From the sequence record PZ452606.1: DNA of 64,000 nucleotides. One strand, written 5' to 3'. A program made the translations under genes and the position numbers. Positions 22,896-54,700 of this stretch are shown here, in pieces. The notes under the pieces are model-generated. The model searched no databases and was not told the origin of the DNA. It saw only the letters and a program-made list of their open reading frames with translations. This stretch comes from a phage. Position 1 is the stretch's first letter; every line of letters starts with the position of its first letter.

Positions 22896-22917
22896 ATGGG
22901 GACCGAAAGGTCCCCAT
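22896..22917. terminator. bidirectional terminator between gene 54 (+) and the alt region (-)
   Basis: ATGGGGACC-GAAA-GGTCCCCAT, 9-bp stem, followed by ATTTTTATTT. Confidence 0.75.
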
Positions 22918-22921
22918 ATTT

Positions 22922-23212
22922 TTATTTACGGAATGAAATAAAAGCAGCAACTGAAGCAACTAAACTGTCTTCAATATAAACTTCAATTTTTACCGGAGCT
23001 TCTGACTCAAATTTACCTGTTACTACACCTTGGAAAATGCTTTCAGTCTGCTGTGGCTTTGAAAAATTTTCAGAAGGAAAAATTCCGAACTTTTTATCTG
23101 TTCCAAAAATTTTGATAAATTCATCATAAACTGCTTCATTAAAAGCGTTATCAGCAGGAATAACGCCTTCAACTACAAGTTCTTGACCTAAAAAGCGTAA
23201 AGAAGATTTCAT
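22922..23212 (-). CDS. hypothetical protein (alt.-3 position)
   Basis: 96-aa ORF; preceded on the - strand by a GTTTAC...TAnnnT promoter-like element and GAGG RBS. Confidence 0.6.
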   Translation of the reverse strand: MKSSLRFLGQELVVEGVIPADNAFNEAVYDEFIKIFGTDKKFGIFPSENFSKPQQTESIFQGVVTGKFESEAPVKIEVYIEDSLVASVAAFISFRK

Positions 23213-23220
23213 TTTGTGTT

Positions 23221-23273
23221 CCTCATGTTATGTCAGTAAGATTACTGTAACACAACACGAGGGACTTGTAAAC
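23221..23273 (-). repeat. 53-bp intergenic repeat, copy A (second copy at 38546-38598, 52/53 identical)
   Basis: CCTCATGTTATGTCAGTAAGA[T/C]TACTGTAACACAACACGAGGGACTTGTAAAC present at both loci immediately 5' of minus-strand genes. Confidence 0.9.
23238..23273 (-). promoter_or_regulatory. T4 early-type promoter candidate (GTTTAC -35-like, TGnTACAGT -10-like) within 53-bp repeat, copy A
   Basis: Minus strand GTTTAC-17 nt-TTACAGT followed by GAGG RBS and the alt.-3-position ORF. Confidence 0.45.
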
Positions 23274-25330
23274 TACATCTTGAACTTTTTAGACATTCCG
23301 TTGATGCTAACCAAAGAAGCCAAGATTTGAGAAACTTCGTTTTCCTCTTCTTTTGATTCTTCTACAAGGAATTGATTAAACCCAGCCATTGGACGAACTT
23401 CACCAGTTTCCATTAGATGATCGCCATCATATACCGATTCTTCTAATTGTTCAGAAGGAGGAACGATTGTGCCTTCGATTAGATACTTGTTATAAGCAGT
23501 TTCTTTCATCATGTACGTGCTTACTTTATTAATCTTCAACAAAATTCCACGCGGTAGAATAACTTCAGCTTCTGATGGAAATCCTGATAAATGACCTGGA
23601 ACGATAACTTTGATTCGTTCAGCCCCTTTAATTACCATACCTACGCTAGTTTCAGCATCTTCATTAGCATATGTAGAATGACTACCCATATGCATCAAAT
23701 CTTCTGCATCAACGGAACCTTCTCCTTCACCAGAAAATACTGCGCCGGAATCATCTAGAGCCATATAGTTTTTACCATGCTCACCGAAGATATTTGGTTT
23801 AAGCGATGTGGATACGAAGTTCTTGAAATAGAACATTTTATTTTCAATATTATGACGTAAAGTTTTAAAGGTAACTTCTTGTCCGCGATAAAGCGTAGTT
23901 CCTGGAGGAAGAACTGAACCTTTAGCAAATGCAGAATCCAACGTCTCGATGTGCTTAATAGCTCGTTCCATATATTCTTCACGGGTAGAATCTGGTTTAC
24001 CCAAGAGGAACGAGTTCATTTCAACATATGAATCTGCACAATAATCTTCAATTACATCAGACTCAGCCTGAGTTAATCCTTTTGGAGTTACTTCGGTGCT
24101 TGCGTATTCATATGCCTGAGCAGCAGATTCATTAATCAATTTATAAATGCTATTCATGACAAATTGAATAATAGCTACTTTTTCGTCTGGCGTGGCTTTA
24201 GAACCTTTAACTAAATCATTGATAATTTTCTTAATAACATCAAAGCTATTAGAAATATTAATGTCAGCTAGATCGCTCAAAATTTTATCGGTTTTATAAT
24301 CAAAAAATTCTTTATTCTTTAAATATTCTTGAGAACCTTGATGTGTTATATCGCTCTGCAGTCTGATAGACGGATCACGTAAACGTGCATGGGCCAATGC
24401 AATATGATTTCGGAAGCTTTCTAGTTCATAATCGTTAGATTTAAAACGAGAAGCACTTCTCATACCACCGATAGCTCCTTTGCCGAAGTTGGAACCAATC
24501 TGAATAACGCCAGAGTTCATTGGTCCTTCTGCTTTATATACCGGAACTTTAGATTCAAACTCTTGATATTTCTTAGCGGCGAAGCTATCGCCCTGGAGTG
24601 AGGCATCGACAGTAGAATATTGAGCTTGCGCTGCTAATCGACGACTAATTTTAGTTTTCTGAATAACAGCTTGATCAGTGCGCTTATCATTTTCTAAAGC
24701 AATAGAAGCAGCAACAGCGACAGCTTTAGGAACAGCATTACCTGTTTTAACGTCTACATAAACATCACCAACCTTTGATTCAACTTTTGTGAATAACTCA
24801 GTTGAAATAGGAGGTACACCTGGAATGTCTTCTAAATTGGCATTTTTACGGTAAACCATAATATATGCGTACTTTTTATCATAGTCCCAGATTTCCTTTA
24901 AAAGAACATATCGACCTGCTCCTTTAGTACGTACTAAACGGTCAGCAATAACTTGCATTTGACGAGCTGCGCCATTTGTTTTACTCTTTAGTACGCGGAA
25001 TAGGCATGCGTCGATTTTATACTGCTTCATTGTTTGAAGAGCAGTATCAAAAACAGCATTAATGACGCCAATTGGATTTCCACCCAAGTTTCTAAGCTTA
25101 ACCAGCGATAATTTCTCGTTGACACCTATCATTACGATATGCATCATTTTATCGCCTGGCTTAACGTTTTTATTCGTATCACCACCAGAGGTGTATGTAC
25201 AAAATCTAAATCCAGGAAGCACGCTTTCTTCGCCGGCTTGAATAGCAAAAATTTGTGGTATTTTATGCTTAGGATTTAAGTTAACAACCGGCGCCGAAGC
25301 GCCGTCAAATAATTCTGTAATAAGTTCCAT
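23273..25330 (-). CDS. Alt-like ADP-ribosyltransferase paralogue (685 aa)
   Basis: N-terminal third near-identical in pattern to the adjacent 698-aa ORF; C-terminal ART R/S/E triad candidates: YRGQ, FVSTSL, PSEAEVILPRG. Confidence 0.8.
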   Translation of the reverse strand: MELITELFDGASAPVVNLNPKHKIPQIFAIQAGEESVLPGFRFCTYTSGGDTNKNVKPGDKMMHIVMIGVNEKLSLVKLRNLGGNPIGVINAVFDTALQTMKQYKIDACLFRVLKSKTNGAARQMQVIADRLVRTKGAGRYVLLKEIWDYDKKYAYIMVYRKNANLEDIPGVPPISTELFTKVESKVGDVYVDVKTGNAVPKAVAVAASIALENDKRTDQAVIQKTKISRRLAAQAQYSTVDASLQGDSFAAKKYQEFESKVPVYKAEGPMNSGVIQIGSNFGKGAIGGMRSASRFKSNDYELESFRNHIALAHARLRDPSIRLQSDITHQGSQEYLKNKEFFDYKTDKILSDLADINISNSFDVIKKIINDLVKGSKATPDEKVAIIQFVMNSIYKLINESAAQAYEYASTEVTPKGLTQAESDVIEDYCADSYVEMNSFLLGKPDSTREEYMERAIKHIETLDSAFAKGSVLPPGTTLYRGQEVTFKTLRHNIENKMFYFKNFVSTSLKPNIFGEHGKNYMALDDSGAVFSGEGEGSVDAEDLMHMGSHSTYANEDAETSVGMVIKGAERIKVIVPGHLSGFPSEAEVILPRGILLKINKVSTYMMKETAYNKYLIEGTIVPPSEQLEESVYDGDHLMETGEVRPMAGFNQFLVEESKEEENEVSQILASLVSINGMSKKFKM

Positions 25331-25333
25331 GAT

Positions 25334-27430
25334 TTATCCTTGAACGAACTTGTAAGGCATGTTTGTAATATCTATGCAAGACGCAATAATTCCAAGAGAT
25401 GATTCTACTTTCTGTTTAACATTTGATGAAACAAATGATGCAAAGTCAACTCTGTCTTCTATTTCAATATCACCTGTCATTGCAACTACTTCGCCAGTTT
25501 CCATTAAACGGTCACCGTCATAAATTACCGATTCGGTGAGTTCTTCGGTGGTCATAACTTCAGCTTGAATGAGTTTTGTATTATTAGACGTGGTTCCGTC
25601 ATTATTAGAAGCATCAGTTATTTTATTAACTTTGACCATCAATCCGCGCGGTAGAATAACTTCGGCTTCTGTTGCTATTCCGAGACTTCCTGGATATACA
25701 ACATTAACTTTATGAGCTCCATCAATTGCCCATCCTATTTGAACTTTAACGTATTCAGGATTTTCTTTATACGCTCTTATTTCGTTTGGATTAATAGTTA
25801 TTCCTTCTTCATTTTTATCAACTGTTAATTCGTTACGAGCTTCTGGTTCTAAAAGACCAATACCAGCATGTGTAATTCCAAAACGTCCAAAAATGATAGG
25901 AGTTAAAGAAGTAGATACAAAATTTCTGAAATAGAACACTTTATTTTTAACTAACGCTTCATATATAGGAGCAGTCATACTTTGAGCACGATAAACTGTA
26001 ATGCCTTCTGGTATACGGTCACCATTTTCAAAAGCTGAATCTAAGTTATTTATAGCAGATTCAATTTCTTTTTCGCTCATTACATCGTATCGTTCTGGAT
26101 TGTAACGACCTAAAAGAAGATTATTAATGTCTGTATATCCTGAACCGCAATATTCTCTAATGCCACGCTTTTGTGATGGAGTATATTTAGAACCATCGCG
26201 GGCAATAGTAATATCAATCATTGGACCGGCACCAATTCCAGAAAAACTGTAAATCATTCGTTTGAGGAATTTAGTTTTTGCTGCGTTCCAGGAATTTTTA
26301 GTTATTTCTTCCCAGACTTCATCTGGTTGCCCTTTACGAGTTTTATTATGTTTATCAAGCCAATTATCTTTATATTCTTCAAAGAATTTATTAACAGCTG
26401 CTGCGTATTTCTCTAAACATTTTATTGAAGTAGTTGGTTCATTTTTGATTGCGTTAAAAATTACATCTTTAATTTTTTCGGAAACTTCATCAACCTCACT
26501 TTTTGAAAAGAATTTATAGTCATAGTGAAGTTCATTCGCAGTTCCTTCGGCAATAATTTTTGCTGCCTTAGTTTTAGAAGCTAATGAATTAATTCCAAGC
26601 TTCATTTCTTCTGCTTCGGGAATTAAAGGAGCGGTAGCAGGTTTATTGAAATTAGCTGCGGTAGATTCATACTTCTGGAATAATTCACTTTCAAATCTAG
26701 AAGATTCCAATGATTGACTTTGCGCAATTGCTCTACGGGAAATTTTAACTTTAACGATTACAGCTTGGTCAGAACGTTTATCATTTTCCTGCGCAATAGA
26801 TGCTGCAATTGCCTCATTTTTAGTTACTTGGGCTCCAGTATCTTTATTGATATAAACATCACCGACTTTCGATTCAACTTTAGTAAAGAGCTCGGTACTA
26901 ATTTCTGGAACTCCCGGAATGTCTTCTAGTGATACATTTTTGCGATGTATAAGAATATATGCATACTTTTTATCATAATCCCAGAGTTCCTTAAGAAGGA
27001 CGTATCTGCCACCTGAACGACTACGGATAAGTCTATCAGCAATAACTTGAATTTGTCGAGCTTGACCAGCGGTTTTAGACTTAAGAATACGAAGCATACA
27101 AGCATCAATTTTATACTGACGCATTGTTTGCATTGCAACAGTAAAAACTGAATTGATATAATTAATTGGGCTTGGACCAAGACCTTTTAATTTAGCAATT
27201 GAACCTTTAGCAGTTAATGTAAAAGGAACAATATGCATCATTTTATCGCCCATCTTTAAATCGCGATTAGTATCACCTCCAGATGTATAGGTACATAAAC
27301 GAAAGCCTGGCTGTTCAATTGCATCATCAACGTGAACTGAAAAAATTTGCGGTATTTTCTTCTTTGGATTTAAGTTTGTAATCGGAAGAGTAGTATCTTC
27401 GTCAAATAATTCTGTAATAAGTTCCATCAT
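25334..27430 (-). CDS. alt: Alt-like ADP-ribosyltransferase (698 aa; probable alt)
   Basis: Position next to gene 30; ART motifs YRAQ, FVSTSL, ATEAEVILPRG; N-terminus MMELITELFDE; minus-strand TATAAATA late promoter upstream; which paralogue corresponds to T4 alt is uncertain. Confidence 0.8.
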   Translation of the reverse strand: MMELITELFDEDTTLPITNLNPKKKIPQIFSVHVDDAIEQPGFRLCTYTSGGDTNRDLKMGDKMMHIVPFTLTAKGSIAKLKGLGPSPINYINSVFTVAMQTMRQYKIDACMLRILKSKTAGQARQIQVIADRLIRSRSGGRYVLLKELWDYDKKYAYILIHRKNVSLEDIPGVPEISTELFTKVESKVGDVYINKDTGAQVTKNEAIAASIAQENDKRSDQAVIVKVKISRRAIAQSQSLESSRFESELFQKYESTAANFNKPATAPLIPEAEEMKLGINSLASKTKAAKIIAEGTANELHYDYKFFSKSEVDEVSEKIKDVIFNAIKNEPTTSIKCLEKYAAAVNKFFEEYKDNWLDKHNKTRKGQPDEVWEEITKNSWNAAKTKFLKRMIYSFSGIGAGPMIDITIARDGSKYTPSQKRGIREYCGSGYTDINNLLLGRYNPERYDVMSEKEIESAINNLDSAFENGDRIPEGITVYRAQSMTAPIYEALVKNKVFYFRNFVSTSLTPIIFGRFGITHAGIGLLEPEARNELTVDKNEEGITINPNEIRAYKENPEYVKVQIGWAIDGAHKVNVVYPGSLGIATEAEVILPRGLMVKVNKITDASNNDGTTSNNTKLIQAEVMTTEELTESVIYDGDRLMETGEVVAMTGDIEIEDRVDFASFVSSNVKQKVESSLGIIASCIDITNMPYKFVQG

Positions 27431-31839: not shown

Positions 31840-32172
31840 TTATTTTACTACTTTCCAGTGCTTCATGTCAAGTTTACCAACTTTTTTCATCTTCTCAATT
31901 AAGCGTTCGGCACGTTGGCGAGCTGTAACATAATACCATTCACCTAATTCATTTTGTTCAATTTTTCCAACGATTACTGTATTCAATTCATAAATCCAAC
32001 CAGTAAAGAAATTATGAACTTGAATTGTAAAGGTGAAATCTGTTCCCATACCTTCTGTTGTTTCTACTTCAATAATATCACCTTCAACTGCCATTAAGAA
32101 CCACATAGTTTCATCATATTTACCATTGAAGCATTTAGTTTTAACTGCAGCGTTCAGATTAATCGTTTTCAT
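31840..32172 (-). CDS. hypothetical protein (30.8 position)
   Basis: 110-aa ORF. Confidence 0.6.
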   Translation of the reverse strand: MKTINLNAAVKTKCFNGKYDETMWFLMAVEGDIIEVETTEGMGTDFTFTIQVHNFFTGWIYELNTVIVGKIEQNELGEWYYVTARQRAERLIEKMKKVGKLDMKHWKVVK

Positions 32173-32258
32173 TTTATTCTCCTTTGTTTGTGTAAGATAA
32201 TACTATCACAAAGGAGCTATACTGTAAACAACTTTGTGCAATCTTTGGAAAATAAAAA

Positions 32259-37693: not shown

Positions 37694-38043
37694 TTAGAAA
37701 GGTCCTGGATGTCTTCTGCGAACTTGTTGAAGGAGTTGTTGATTTGTTTTTCAACCAATCCTGGCTTATGAGCCACCACATCCGCCTTCTTTGCGTCTTT
37801 GCGCAGTTTTTCATTTTCACGCTCAATAGCAGCAATTGCCTCACGATTTTTATTATTCATCGCATCAATATAATTATACTGAATTCGCAAATTATTTAAT
37901 GCTAAGGCGTTTTCATTGGCCGTTTTTGTAATTTCTACAACAGACGTTTCTAATCTTTCAATTTTATTTTTTAAAATTAAAGAAGTTCCGCCTAATGCAA
38001 TTACAATTAATAGCAAACCTGCTGTCGTATTACTTAATTGCAT
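37690..38043 (-). CDS. i-spanin (inner-membrane, Rz-like; T4 pseT.3 equivalent)
   Basis: 117-aa ORF; N-terminal TM helix (AGLLLIVIALGGTSLIL) then coiled-coil-like Lys/Glu-rich periplasmic domain. Confidence 0.7.
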   Translation of the reverse strand: MQLSNTTAGLLLIVIALGGTSLILKNKIERLETSVVEITKTANENALALNNLRIQYNYIDAMNNKNREAIAAIERENEKLRKDAKKADVVAHKPGLVEKQINNSFNKFAEDIQDLSK

Positions 38044-38540
38044 AAAGTTTTAATAACCTCTATAATATCGTCTTGAGAAAGACCGTTAATTAAAATATGA
38101 TGTTCAGCTGGAGATTTAGAAATTTTAAAGCATGCCTCAACATCTTCTGCCATATCCGATGCACTACGATTTGGATTACTAATACCAAGGCGGTGTTTTC
38201 CCGTCAAAGGATTAACGATGATATAGCATTTGCAGCTATTGATATGAACATTGGGTTGAGTCTGATTAATGAACACTTCACAATCATACTTAGCGAGTTG
38301 ATTTTCTAAAAAGACTTTCATCTCTTCAACCGCATCAGGAAGCATATCACGGGCTTGCTCAAGACGACGATTTCGATATTCTTTAATGGTCGTTTTCCGC
38401 TTGACTTGCTTAGCTAAATCTTTCTTAAGATCGGTGATATATCCAACTCGACGATTTCCTTTGAATACAGAAATCCCATCTGTAGTATCACCGTATGCTT
38501 CAACGACCATTTCAGTAGTAATAAGTTGTAAATCCATCAT
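38034..38540 (-). CDS. alc: Alc, inhibitor of host transcription
   Basis: 168-aa ORF (T4 Alc ~167 aa); position between spanins and rnlA; preceded by the 53-bp repeated promoter element. Confidence 0.82.
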   Translation of the reverse strand: MMDLQLITTEMVVEAYGDTTDGISVFKGNRRVGYITDLKKDLAKQVKRKTTIKEYRNRRLEQARDMLPDAVEEMKVFLENQLAKYDCEVFINQTQPNVHINSCKCYIIVNPLTGKHRLGISNPNRSASDMAEDVEACFKISKSPAEHHILINGLSQDDIIEVIKTLCN

Positions 38541-38545
38541 AAAGT

Positions 38546-38598
38546 CCTCATGTTATGTCAGTAAGACTACTGTAACACAACACGAGGGACTTGTAAAC
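38546..38598 (-). repeat. 53-bp intergenic repeat, copy B
   Basis: See copy A; single T/C difference. Confidence 0.9.
38563..38598 (-). promoter_or_regulatory. T4 early-type promoter candidate within 53-bp repeat, copy B (upstream of alc)
   Basis: Same element as 23238-23273 with one mismatch. Confidence 0.45.
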
Positions 38599-38601
38599 AG
38601 C

Positions 38602-40189
<1,588 letters not shown>

Positions 40190-51761: not shown

Positions 51762-54700
51762 ATGGCCGAGATTAAAAGAAAGTTCAGAGCAGAAGATGGT
51801 CTGGACGCAGGTGGTGATAAAATAATCAACGTAGCTTTAGCTGATCGTGCCGTAGGAACTGACGGTGTTAACGTTGATTACTTAATTCAAGAAAACACAG
51901 TTCAACAATACGATCCAACTCGTGGATATTTAAAAGATTTTGTAATCATTTATGATAACCGCTTTTGGGCTGCTATAAATGATATTCCAAAACCGGCAGG
52001 AGCTTTTAATAGCGGACGCTGGAGAGCATTACGTACCGATGCTAACTGGATTACGGTTTCATCTGGTTCATATCAATTAAAATCTGGTGAAGCTATTTCG
52101 GTTAACACCGCAGCTGGTAATGATATTACATTTACTTTACCATCTACCCCAATTGACGGTGATACTATCGTTCTCCAAGATATTGGAGGAAAACCTGGAG
52201 TTAACCAAGTTTTAATTGTAGCTCCAGTGCAAAGTATTGTAAACTTCAGAGGTCAACAAGTACGTTCAGTACTAATGACTCATCCAAAATCGCAGATAGT
52301 TTTAATTTTTAGTAATCGTCTGTGGCAAATGTATGTTGCCGATTATAGTAGAGAAGCTGTCGTTGTAACACCAGCAAGTCTCTATCAGGCGCAATCTAAT
52401 GATTTTATCGTACGTAGATTTACTTCTGCTGCACCAATTAATGTTAAACTTCCAAGATTTGCTAATCATGGCGATATTATTAATTTCGTTGATTTAGATA
52501 AACTGAATCCACTTTATCATACAATTGTTACTACATACGATGAAACGACTTCAGTACAAGAAGTTGGAACTCATTCCATTGAAGGCCGTACATCAATTGA
52601 CGGTTTCTTGATGTTTGATGATAATGAGAAATTGTGGAGATTGTTTGACGGGGATAGTAAAGCACGTTTACGCATTATAACGACTAATTCTAATATTCGT
52701 CCAAACGAAGAAGTCATGGTATTTGGTGCGAATAACGGAACAACTCAAACAATTGAACTTCAGCTTCCAACTAATATTTCTGTTGGTGATACTGTTAAAA
52801 TTTCCATGAATTACATGAGAAAAGGACAAACAGTTAAAATCAAAGCTGCCGGTGAAGATAAAATTGCTTCTTCGGTTCAATTGTTGCAATTCCCAAAACG
52901 CTCAGAATATCCGCCTGAAGCTGAATGGGTTACAGTCCAAGAATTAGTTTTTAACGGTGAAACTAATTATGTTCCAGTTTTGCAACTTGCTTACATAGAA
53001 GATTCTGATGGAAAATATTGGGTTGTACAGCAAAACGTTCCAACTGTAGAAAGAGTAGACTCTTTAAATGATTCCACTAGAGCAAGATTAGGCGTAATTG
53101 CTTTAGCTACACAAGCTCAAGCTAACGTCGATTTAGAAAATTCTCCACAAAAAGAATTAGCAATTACTCCAGAAACATTAGCTAACCGTACTGCTACAGA
53201 AACTCGTAGAGGTATCGCAAGAATAGCAACTACTGCTCAAGTGAATCAGAACACCACATTCTCTTTTGCTGATGATATTATCATCACTCCTAAAAAGCTG
53301 AATGAAAGAACTGCTACAGAAACTCGCAGAGGTGTTGCAGAAATTGCTACTCAGCAAGAAACAAACGCAGGAACAGATGATACTACAATCATTACTCCTA
53401 AAAAGCTTCAAGCTCGTCAAGGTTCTGAATCATTATCCGGTATTGTAACTTTTGTATCTACTGCAAGTGCTACTCCAGCTTCTAGCCGTGAATTAAATGG
53501 TACGAATGTTTATAATAAAAACACTAATAATTTAGTTGTTTCACCTAAAGCTTTGGATCAGTATAAAGCTACTCCAACGCAGCAAGGTGCAGTAATTTTA
53601 GCAGTTGAAAGTGAAGTAATTGCTGGACAAAGTCAGGAAGGATGGGCAAATGCTGTTGTAACGCCAGAAACGTTACATAAAAAGACATCAACTGATGGAA
53701 GAATTGGTTTAATTGAAATTGCTACGCAAAGTGAAGTTAATACAGGAACTGATTATACTCGTGCAGTCACTCCTAAAACTTTAAATGACCGTAGAGCAAC
53801 TGAAAGTTTAAGTGGTATAGCTGAAATTGCTACACAAGTTGAATTCGACGCAGGCGTCGACGATACTCGTATCTCTACACCATTAAAAATTAAAACCAGA
53901 TTTAATAGTACTGATCGTACTTCTGTTGTTGCTCTATCTGGATTAGTTGAATCAGGAACTCTCTGGGACCATTATACCCTTAATATTCTTGAAGCAAATG
54001 AGACACAGCGTGGTACACTTCGTGTAGCTACACAGGTCGAAGCTGCTGCAGGAACATTAGATAATGTTTTAATAACTCCTAAAAAGCTTTTAGGTACTAA
54101 ATCTACCGAAGCACAAGAAGGTGTTATTAAAGTTGCAACCCAGTCTGAAACCGTAGCTGGAACATCAGCAAATACTGCTGTATCTCCAAAAAATTTAAAA
54201 TGGATTGTGCAGAGTGAACCTACTTGGGCAGCTACTACTGCAATAAGAGGTTTTGTTAAAACTTCATCTGGTTCAATTACATTCGTTGGTAATGATACAG
54301 TCGGTTCTACCCAAGATTTAGAACTATATGAGAAAAATAGCTATGCAGTATCACCATATGAATTAAACCGTGTATTAGCAAATTATTTGCCGTTAAAAGC
54401 AAAAGCTGCTGATACAAATTTATTGGATGGTCTAGATTCATCTCAGTTCATTCGTAGGGATATTGCACAGACGGTTAATGGTTCACTAACCTTAACCCAA
54501 CAAACGAATCTGAGTGCCCCTCTTGTATCATCTAGTACTGCTACGTTTGGTGGTTCAGTTTCGGCAAATAGTACATTAACTATTTCTAATACTGGAACGG
54601 CAACTCGTCTGATTTTTGAGAAAGGACCTCAAACTGGAACTAACCCAGCACAGACGATGACTATCAGAGTTTGGGGAAATCAGTTTGGTGGTGGATCAGA

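Follow-up and report, generated by a model that had tools for sequence, protein, structure and literature searches.

The question raised by this locus is why two genes that lie about 15 kb apart in a T4-like phage, alt.-3 and alc, are preceded by almost the same sequence, and what that sequence does there. The window, by which we mean the whole stretch of 64,000 nucleotides analyzed (record PZ452606.1), comes from a Tequatrovirus whose closest match is Escherichia phage SholemSchwarzbard (99%). The element is found on the minus strand as copy A (23220..23273, GTTTACAAGTCCCTCGTGTTGTGTTACAGTAATCTTACTGACATAACATGAGGA), located 5' of alt.-3, and as copy B (38545..38598), located 5' of alc. The repeat unit reads GTTTACAAGTCCCTCGTGTTGTGTTACAGTA, then A or G, then TCTTACTGACATAACATGAGGA, and the two copies are identical at 53 of 54 positions. 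The single mismatch, A in copy A and G in copy B at element position 32, falls in the loop of the hairpin described below and is the one T/C difference of the plus strand reported in the earlier note. That note had described a near-identical minus-strand element of 53 bp at both loci, and this description was correct except for the length, which is 54 nt. A search of the 64 kb allowing up to three mismatches returned two sites, copies A and B (0 expected from 100 dinucleotide shuffles), and no third site. Copies A and B form the highest-identity long direct repeat of the window, with a spacing of 15,325 bp, and the similarity between them ends sharply at both edges of the element.

Each copy fills the intergenic space from the stop codon of the upstream gene to the SD and ATG of the downstream gene, with the early promoter inside. 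The first base of copy A is the G of the TAG stop codon of a 685-amino acid Alt paralogue, an ADP-ribosyltransferase encoded at 23273..25330 (minus strand), and its last base lies 8 nt before the ATG of alt.-3 (22922..23212, minus strand; 96 amino acids, DUF5498). Copy B starts 3 nt past the TAA stop codon of rnlA (RNA ligase 1; 38602..39762, minus strand), with no terminator between them, and ends 5 or 8 nt before two in-frame ATGs of alc (38034..38540, minus strand), which encodes an inhibitor of host transcription of 168 amino acids from the first ATG or 167 from the second, the one annotated in T4. Pfam assigned the four flanking genes to DUF5498 (Alt.-3), ALC, ADP-ribosyltransferase and T4 RNA ligase 1, confirming together with the coordinates that the copies lie directly 5' of alt.-3 and alc. 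The Alt paralogue next to copy A is one of two tandem full-length ADP-ribosyltransferase paralogues (23273-25330 and 25334-27430, minus strand), which share blocks of 72-78% nucleotide identity and 31 nt of 97% identity at their 5' ends; in T4 the alt copy beside alt.-3 is reduced to the fragments alt.-1 and alt.-2. A perfect 9-bp G+C-rich hairpin, terminator-like on both strands, was found at 22896-22917 between the convergent genes 54 (plus strand) and alt.-3 (minus strand). Elsewhere in the window, the region 53163-54088 (plus strand) contains three copies of a 69-nt motif (65-71% identity) and three of a 30-nt motif (80-83%), which resemble internal repeats of a long structural gene.

Both copies contain TTTACA and TACAGT separated by 17 nt, with TG at -15/-14, followed by an 18-nt leader and the SD sequence GAGG. 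The -35 hexamer TTTACA (copy A 23267..23272, copy B 38592-38597, minus strand) was invariant in 28 of 28 aligned cassettes. The extended -10, TGT plus TACAGT, is located at 23244..23252 in copy A and at 38569-38577 in copy B (minus strand), and the corresponding T4 hexamer is TATAGT at both loci. The seventh nucleotide after the -10, A37 in element numbering (23237 in copy A and 38562 in copy B, minus strand; 123,057 and 136,300 in T4, NC_000866), was also invariant in the 28 cassettes, which represent several genera; it was taken as the predicted +1, and transcription would probably start exactly at this A. Variation within Tequatrovirus was sampled in 36 copies comprising 14 haplotypes. The -35, the TG, positions 1, 2, 4 and 6 of the -10 and leader positions 41-54 never varied in this sample, and the variable positions were 11, 15, 16, 18, 19, 27, 29, 32-34 and 40.

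The same sequence is annotated as a "predicted early promoter" in the records of phages fPS-65 and vB_EcoM_Lutter; the T4 records NC_000866 and AF158101 carry no promoter features at these two sites. A T4 time course classes alt.-3 and alc as early RNA/early protein, alt.-1 and alt.-2, directly upstream of alt.-3, as middle RNA, and rnlA as early RNA/late protein, and these expression classes fit a separate early start before each of the two genes. The earlier note had interpreted the element as a T4 early-promoter-like -35/-10 with a 5' UTR and ribosome-binding site. The promoter match in both copies, the annotation of the same sequence in other phages and the early expression of alt.-3 and alc in T4 indicate that this promoter-plus-leader reading is right.

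The T4 early promoters have reportedly been catalogued by Liebig and Rueger (1989) and by Miller et al (2003). Like the catalogued promoters, the cassette shows -35, TGn and -10 elements with excellent matches for sigma-70 RNA polymerase, a closely spaced SD and an early gene next to it. On the other hand, an A/T-rich UP element is hard to recognize, the DNA upstream being the 3' end of a coding gene; copy A has an A-run (ctaaaaagttc) in this region and copy B is moderately A/T-rich. These promoters were reviewed by Hinton in 2010 (PMC2988021).

The cassette is at the same time a long imperfect palindrome, a feature that the earlier note did not mention, in which positions from about 8 to 31 (spacer, TGn and -10) pair with positions from about 36 to 54 (leader and SD). 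The 5' arm, made up of the spacer, TGn and -10 (copy A 23243..23266, copy B 38568-38591), contains the anti-SD CCTCGTGTT (element positions 12-20; copy A 23254-23262, copy B 38579-38587), and the 3' arm, which is the leader (copy A 23220..23238, copy B 38545-38563), contains the SD arm AACATGAGG with the SD GAGG (copy A 23221-23229, copy B 38546-38554), all on the minus strand. RNAs of 101-104 nt around each copy were folded with 200 shuffles as control. A single long stem of about 20 bp was predicted, with the anti-SD CCUCGUGUU opposite AACAUGAGG, which contains the SD. The fold energy was -32.6 kcal/mol in the alc context (shuffles -18.1 +/- 3.0; z -4.8) and -28.4 kcal/mol in the alt.-3 context (z -3.55), and none of the 200 shuffles was as good in either case; the T4 alc copy gave -31.2 kcal/mol (z -4.2). 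In both read-through contexts the SD GAGG was paired in the predicted fold. The predicted +1 falls within the 3' arm and the 5' arm lies upstream of it, so that the anti-SD arm would be absent from the transcript made from the cassette's own promoter. RNAs starting at the predicted +1 gave only -1.8 and -2.2 kcal/mol (z about -0.3) and were unstructured, with no advantage over shuffles.

An intrinsic terminator was rejected at both copies, since no U-tract follows the stem and a scan for G+C-rich stems with T-runs gave no terminator-like site overlapping either of them. A RegB site was also rejected, as GGAG is missing from the Tequatrovirus SD (GAGGA). Rfam 15 gave no match at the gathering threshold in the whole window, and the literature search returned no paper linking alc, gene 63 and a promoter and none describing a hairpin at alc. 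The GUGU/ACAC part of the upper stem follows general T4 early-promoter preferences, namely TGTG before the -10 and ACAC at the start. Natural variants that break pairs were present in Tequatrovirus (T16, A18, A19, A29 and T40), and a covariation test within the genus gave values equal to those of shuffles, the variation being too small to test. The hairpin is missing from the Mosigvirus alc region (z +0.4), indicating that it is dispensable in at least one genus.

The pairing was analyzed in alc-upstream regions gathered from Dhaka-, Karam-, Moon-, Mosig- and Marfavirus, from Klebsiella phage Roth34, from Morganella, Serratia, Aeromonas and Acinetobacter phages and from 23 IMG/VR contigs. Orthologous alc cassettes of at least eight other T4-like lineages were found to retain it in spite of different sequences. 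In 12 alc-type cassettes from at least six lineages the spacer:leader duplexes ranged from -10.9 to -24 kcal/mol, against -5 to -7 kcal/mol for shuffled spacers; none of 500 shuffled spacers was as good in 11 of the 12, and PWKp18 gave p = 0.04. When spacers and leaders of different cassettes were interchanged, the mean was -19.2 kcal/mol for cognate and -11.5 kcal/mol for non-cognate duplexes, and the cognate partner was the best in every row (0 of 20000 permutations). The same design was found with other sequences in Karam/Moonvirus (UCUCCAUUUGGUUGUGU/ACACUAACCAAAUGGAGA), Dhakavirus (UCUCCUCAU/AUGAGGAGA) and cassette L045 (UCCUCAUUUUGUUG/CAACAAAAUGAGGA). Double compensatory changes were observed between CCAUUUGG/CCAAAUGG and CCGUUUGG/CCAAACGG and between CUCAU/AUGAG and CUCAG/CUGAG, together with a G.U to A-U exchange at positions 16/49. 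In 14 of the 16 cassettes all partners of the SD core were located before the predicted start; of the remaining two, one is explained by a single bulge and the other by a mis-parsed -10. Morganella and Aeromonas phages have their anti-SD after the -10 and before the start, an arrangement that would have the same consequence as an anti-SD in the spacer.

Spacer:leader pairing was absent from the cassettes used as controls, that is, the alt3-type cassettes and six of the seven other early cassettes in the window. The exception among the seven was the related but not identical cassette of gp30.8 (32170..32229, minus strand, upstream of the ORF 31840..32172), with the anti-SD CTCCTTTGT in its spacer and ACAAAGGAG at the SD (-13.8 kcal/mol, z -4.7). 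In the 30.8 cassettes of T4, T6, Karam-, Moon-, Dhaka- and Mosigvirus the pairing is kept and the arms differ. The Tequatrovirus copies and the 30.8 cassettes were recovered by a covariance model derived from the alc cassettes of Karam/Moonvirus; the alignment of this model, which included antisense matches, was too ragged for pair counts, and duplex energies with shuffled and non-cognate controls were used. These comparisons show that the predicted pairing has been conserved by co-variation across genera.

The repeat belongs to a recognized class of elements, the T4 early promoter or PeSL (promoter-early stem-loop) cassettes, and T4 shares it. The PeSLs of T4-type phages (Arbiol et al 2010, PMC2839356; Comeau et al 2014, PMC4122927) consist of a strong sigma-70-like early promoter (PST/T4 consensus TTTACW-N17-TAYWAT) with an SD at the 3' end; they are repeated within a genome and are implicated in the movement and replacement of modules by recombination (PMC2839356, PMC4122927). 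The cassette described here shares with them the early promoter, a stable stem-loop over the spacer and -10, the 3' SD and the repeated copies. It differs in that the 3' arm is the leader and SD itself, so that the ribosome-binding site is sequestered in the predicted fold, and in that the hairpin is not G/C-rich and terminator-like and has no U-tract. Moreover, there are two copies only, 98% identical, fixed in the genus and flanking essential genes rather than ORFans, and the -10 (TACAGT or TATAGT) departs from TAYWAT at position 5.

Another known system is that of the T4 genes e, soc, 49 and I-TevI, in which long upstream transcripts bury the SD and/or AUG in a helix (PMC3014915) and a late promoter within the helix-encoding DNA gives transcripts that lack the 5' strand and are translated (Uzan and Miller 2010, PMC3014915); the stem of gene e is conserved across T4 relatives (PMC3014915). 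In the present cassettes the SD is likewise predicted to be paired in upstream RNA, and RNA from the cassette's own promoter would likewise lack the 5' strand. In contrast, the promoter here is of the early sigma-70 type and not a T4 late promoter (TATAAATA), which makes the cassette a variant of that set rather than a member, and the predicted effect is the opposite, early-only translation. The list of such hairpins in the review (PMC3014915) does not contain alc, alt.-3 or 30.8.

The earlier note had suggested a recent duplication or gene conversion. In T4 both copies are present at the same two loci and differ by one base. A blastn search with the T4 alc copy gave matches of 94% identity or more at 999 places in 500 phage records. 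About 1,100 phage genomes bear alc, and about 497 records contain a near-identical Alc, suggesting that 500 is approximately the size of the genus in the collection and that the matches are probably complete. Scans for the element in IMG/VR and in metagenome contigs yielded only 7 and 6 loci, numbers insufficient for a population analysis, and the INPHARED phage records were used. The presence of the same two copies in essentially every Tequatrovirus record contradicts a recent duplication and indicates an event at least as old as the genus.

Outside the genus a different cassette precedes alt.-3, as seen in Mosig-, Dhaka-, Karam- and Moonvirus and in six distinct non-Tequatrovirus IMG/VR cassette sequences. 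In this alt3-type cassette the hairpin lies wholly within the spacer (stems UCCAC/GUGGA, CACA/UGUG, CCACA/UGUGG and GCAC/GUGC) and there is no strong pairing with the SD (-4 to -8 kcal/mol). Among the genera and IMG/VR contigs compared, an alc-type cassette at alt.-3 was found only in Tequatrovirus, indicating that in this genus alt.-3 received a lineage-specific copy of the cassette of alc. Identity between the two Tequatrovirus copies is 98%, against at most 73% with any orthologue. The assignment of this cassette to the alc type rests more on architecture than on sequence identity, which is 70-73% to Dhakavirus alc and 64-68% to the alt3 types against a background of 55-70%. The spacer hairpins of non-Tequatrovirus alt.-3 (L022 4822-4900, L023 3235-3312, L024 4647-4725, L025 2357-2436 and L067-L083) occupy the classic PeSL stem-loop position; their stems covary (also ACGCCA/UGGUGU) and their loops are purine-rich (AUGGAA, AGGA).

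The parsimonious reading of this distribution is that the cassette was ancestral at alc and that, in the stem lineage of Tequatrovirus, it overwrote the alt.-3 cassette from the -35 to the SD. We infer the direction and mechanism of this event from the comparison of cassettes; it would probably have occurred through recombination at the ends, GTTTACA and ATGAGGA, that the cassettes have in common, and both copies would since have diverged at about the ordinary rate. A pattern of reverse transfer was found in Mosigvirus, whose alc is preceded by an alt3-type cassette, 81% identical to that of Dhakavirus alt.-3 and without the SD hairpin. Replacement of cassettes between loci is the behaviour described for PeSL cassettes (PMC2839356, PMC4122927). 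The alt3-type cassette of Mosigvirus alc also matched, at 83-85% over 47-50 nt, both a third locus in Tequatroviruses (T2, AP018813, 66150-66195; vB_EcoM_Lutter, NC_054924, 70137-70181) and a site near the genome end in Dhakaviruses (JS98, EF469154, 168447-168496), indicating that cassette subfamilies are dispersed beyond the alc and alt.-3 loci. In the Mosigvirus Shigella phage Shf125875 (L022 18208-18771) the annotated alc CDS begins upstream of the promoter cassette, spans it and abuts rnlA; this start was probably mis-called, as an ATG after the SD GAGGAG matches the other genera.

Taken together, we consider it rather probable that each copy is a self-contained early cassette of the PeSL class whose hairpin limits translation to RNA made from its own promoter. 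Read-through RNA from rnlA or the alt paralogue would carry both arms and would fold into the hairpin of about 20 bp, burying the SD and leaving alc or alt.-3 poorly translated. RNA from the cassette's own promoter would begin inside the 3' arm, without the anti-SD, and its SD would be open. The synthesis of Alc and Alt.-3 would in this way be tied to the short period in which early promoters fire. The block on read-through RNA is a prediction of the folding model. More tentatively, at somewhat less than even chances, the cassettes would form a conserved class of early-only gates in T4-like phages, present at alc and 30.8 in many genera and at alt.-3 in Tequatrovirus, in which a portable unit took its timing rule from alc to alt.-3.

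The alternative that the element is merely a duplicated early promoter and leader, whose palindrome is a by-product of the consensus without a role at the RNA level, has in its favour that all T4-type early cassettes share GTTTAC, TGTG-TAnnnT, a start at (T)AC, a CA-rich leader and (A)TGAGGA, that unrelated cassettes are 55-70% identical, that the GUGU/ACAC part of the stem is generic and that covariation within the genus is uninformative. It appears distinctly improbable, however, since spacer:leader pairing is absent from the other early and alt3-type cassettes, cognate arms pair far better than non-cognate ones across lineages (0 of 20000 permutations), compensatory double changes are present and the fold z-scores range from -3.6 to -6.1. 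Two further alternatives remain live. The hairpin could act on the upstream RNA, as a PeSL attenuator or terminator of the rnlA and alt transcripts or as a double-stranded site of processing by an enzyme such as RNase III. A very stable stem of about 20 bp would suit such a role, and Arbiol et al demonstrated termination of reporter transcription by a PeSL stem-loop, the usual sites being between the -35 and -10 or over the -10 (PMC2839356). The absence of a U-tract and the empty terminator scan at both copies argue against it, as does the feature kept in every lineage, an SD core paired upstream of the start, which an attenuator would not need; we regard this role as unlikely. Translational coupling, in which the SD of read-through RNA would become accessible only once a ribosome has completed the upstream gene, is very unlikely. 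The upstream stop codons lie 0-3 nt before the cassette and the anti-SD begins 11-14 nt past the stop, a distance which, judging from the known footprint, is within reach of a terminating ribosome, so that melting of the lower stem could give coupled rather than blocked translation. On the other hand, only the lowest few pairs would be melted and about 15 more lie above them, and in the Morganella and Aeromonas phages the anti-SD is about 35 nt from the upstream stop and beside the start, which fits promoter-dependent gating better.

The last alternative is that the repeats serve mainly as substrates for recombination, either through ongoing conversion or by causing the 15.3-kb interval to be deleted or circularized. 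In RB49/phi1, PeSL pairs sharing less than 50 bp of homology recombine to give mini-circles (PMC2839356), which makes recombination between the 54-bp repeats of a T4-type phage plausible by analogy. Transfer of a cassette from one of the two loci to the other has taken place on at least one occasion and probably on two (Tequatrovirus alt.-3 and Mosigvirus alc), and the variants A16, C27, A32 and T34 are present at both loci in different genomes. Ongoing concerted evolution was nevertheless not supported, and the earlier suggestion of gene conversion was not borne out: in nine genomes with both copies the paralogues were no more alike within genomes (2.0 differences) than between genomes (2.14; permutation p = 0.26), and the divergence of the cassettes (1.9% at alc and 7.0% at alt.-3) was similar to that of the flanking genes (2.6-4.8%), with no excess conservation. 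To account for the identity, a single ancient copy event with ordinary divergence thereafter suffices. Within the interval lie DNA ligase (gene 30), the co-chaperonin gene 31, rIII, cd and pseT. Genes 30 and 31 are essential in T4, and a viable 15-kb deletion is therefore unlikely; a deletion or circle, if formed, would be a dead end. In agreement with this, retention of the pair and its interval is evident from the 999 places in 500 records, with fewer than two copies in only 1 of about 500 records and no deletion in the 500 genomes. The deletion of about 15 kb proposed in the earlier note is thus possible in its mechanism and opposed by the contents of the interval and the retention of the pair, and recombination as the main role of the repeats is hardly to be expected.

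The repeat by itself is ordinary, as two copies of an early promoter cassette are present also in T4. As far as the searched literature shows, what is new is the conserved anti-SD in a promoter spacer and the lineage-specific transplantation of a module from alc to alt.-3. The 54-bp module interlocks promoter, leader and anti-SD, and the origin of a transcript is predicted to decide whether it is translated. If this is true, the cassette would be the early-only counterpart, and the inverse, of the late-only hairpin gates of T4 e, soc, 49 and I-TevI; read-through RNA persisting through middle and late times would be left untranslated, and this may be part of the reason why the synthesis of some immediate-early proteins stops abruptly. 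The design is simple and might be reused in synthetic biology. If confirmed, it would explain why the whole spacer and leader, and not the hexamers alone, were copied and kept, and would provide a concrete case in which a PeSL-type cassette was transplanted to a locus 15 kb away and took its regulatory logic with it.
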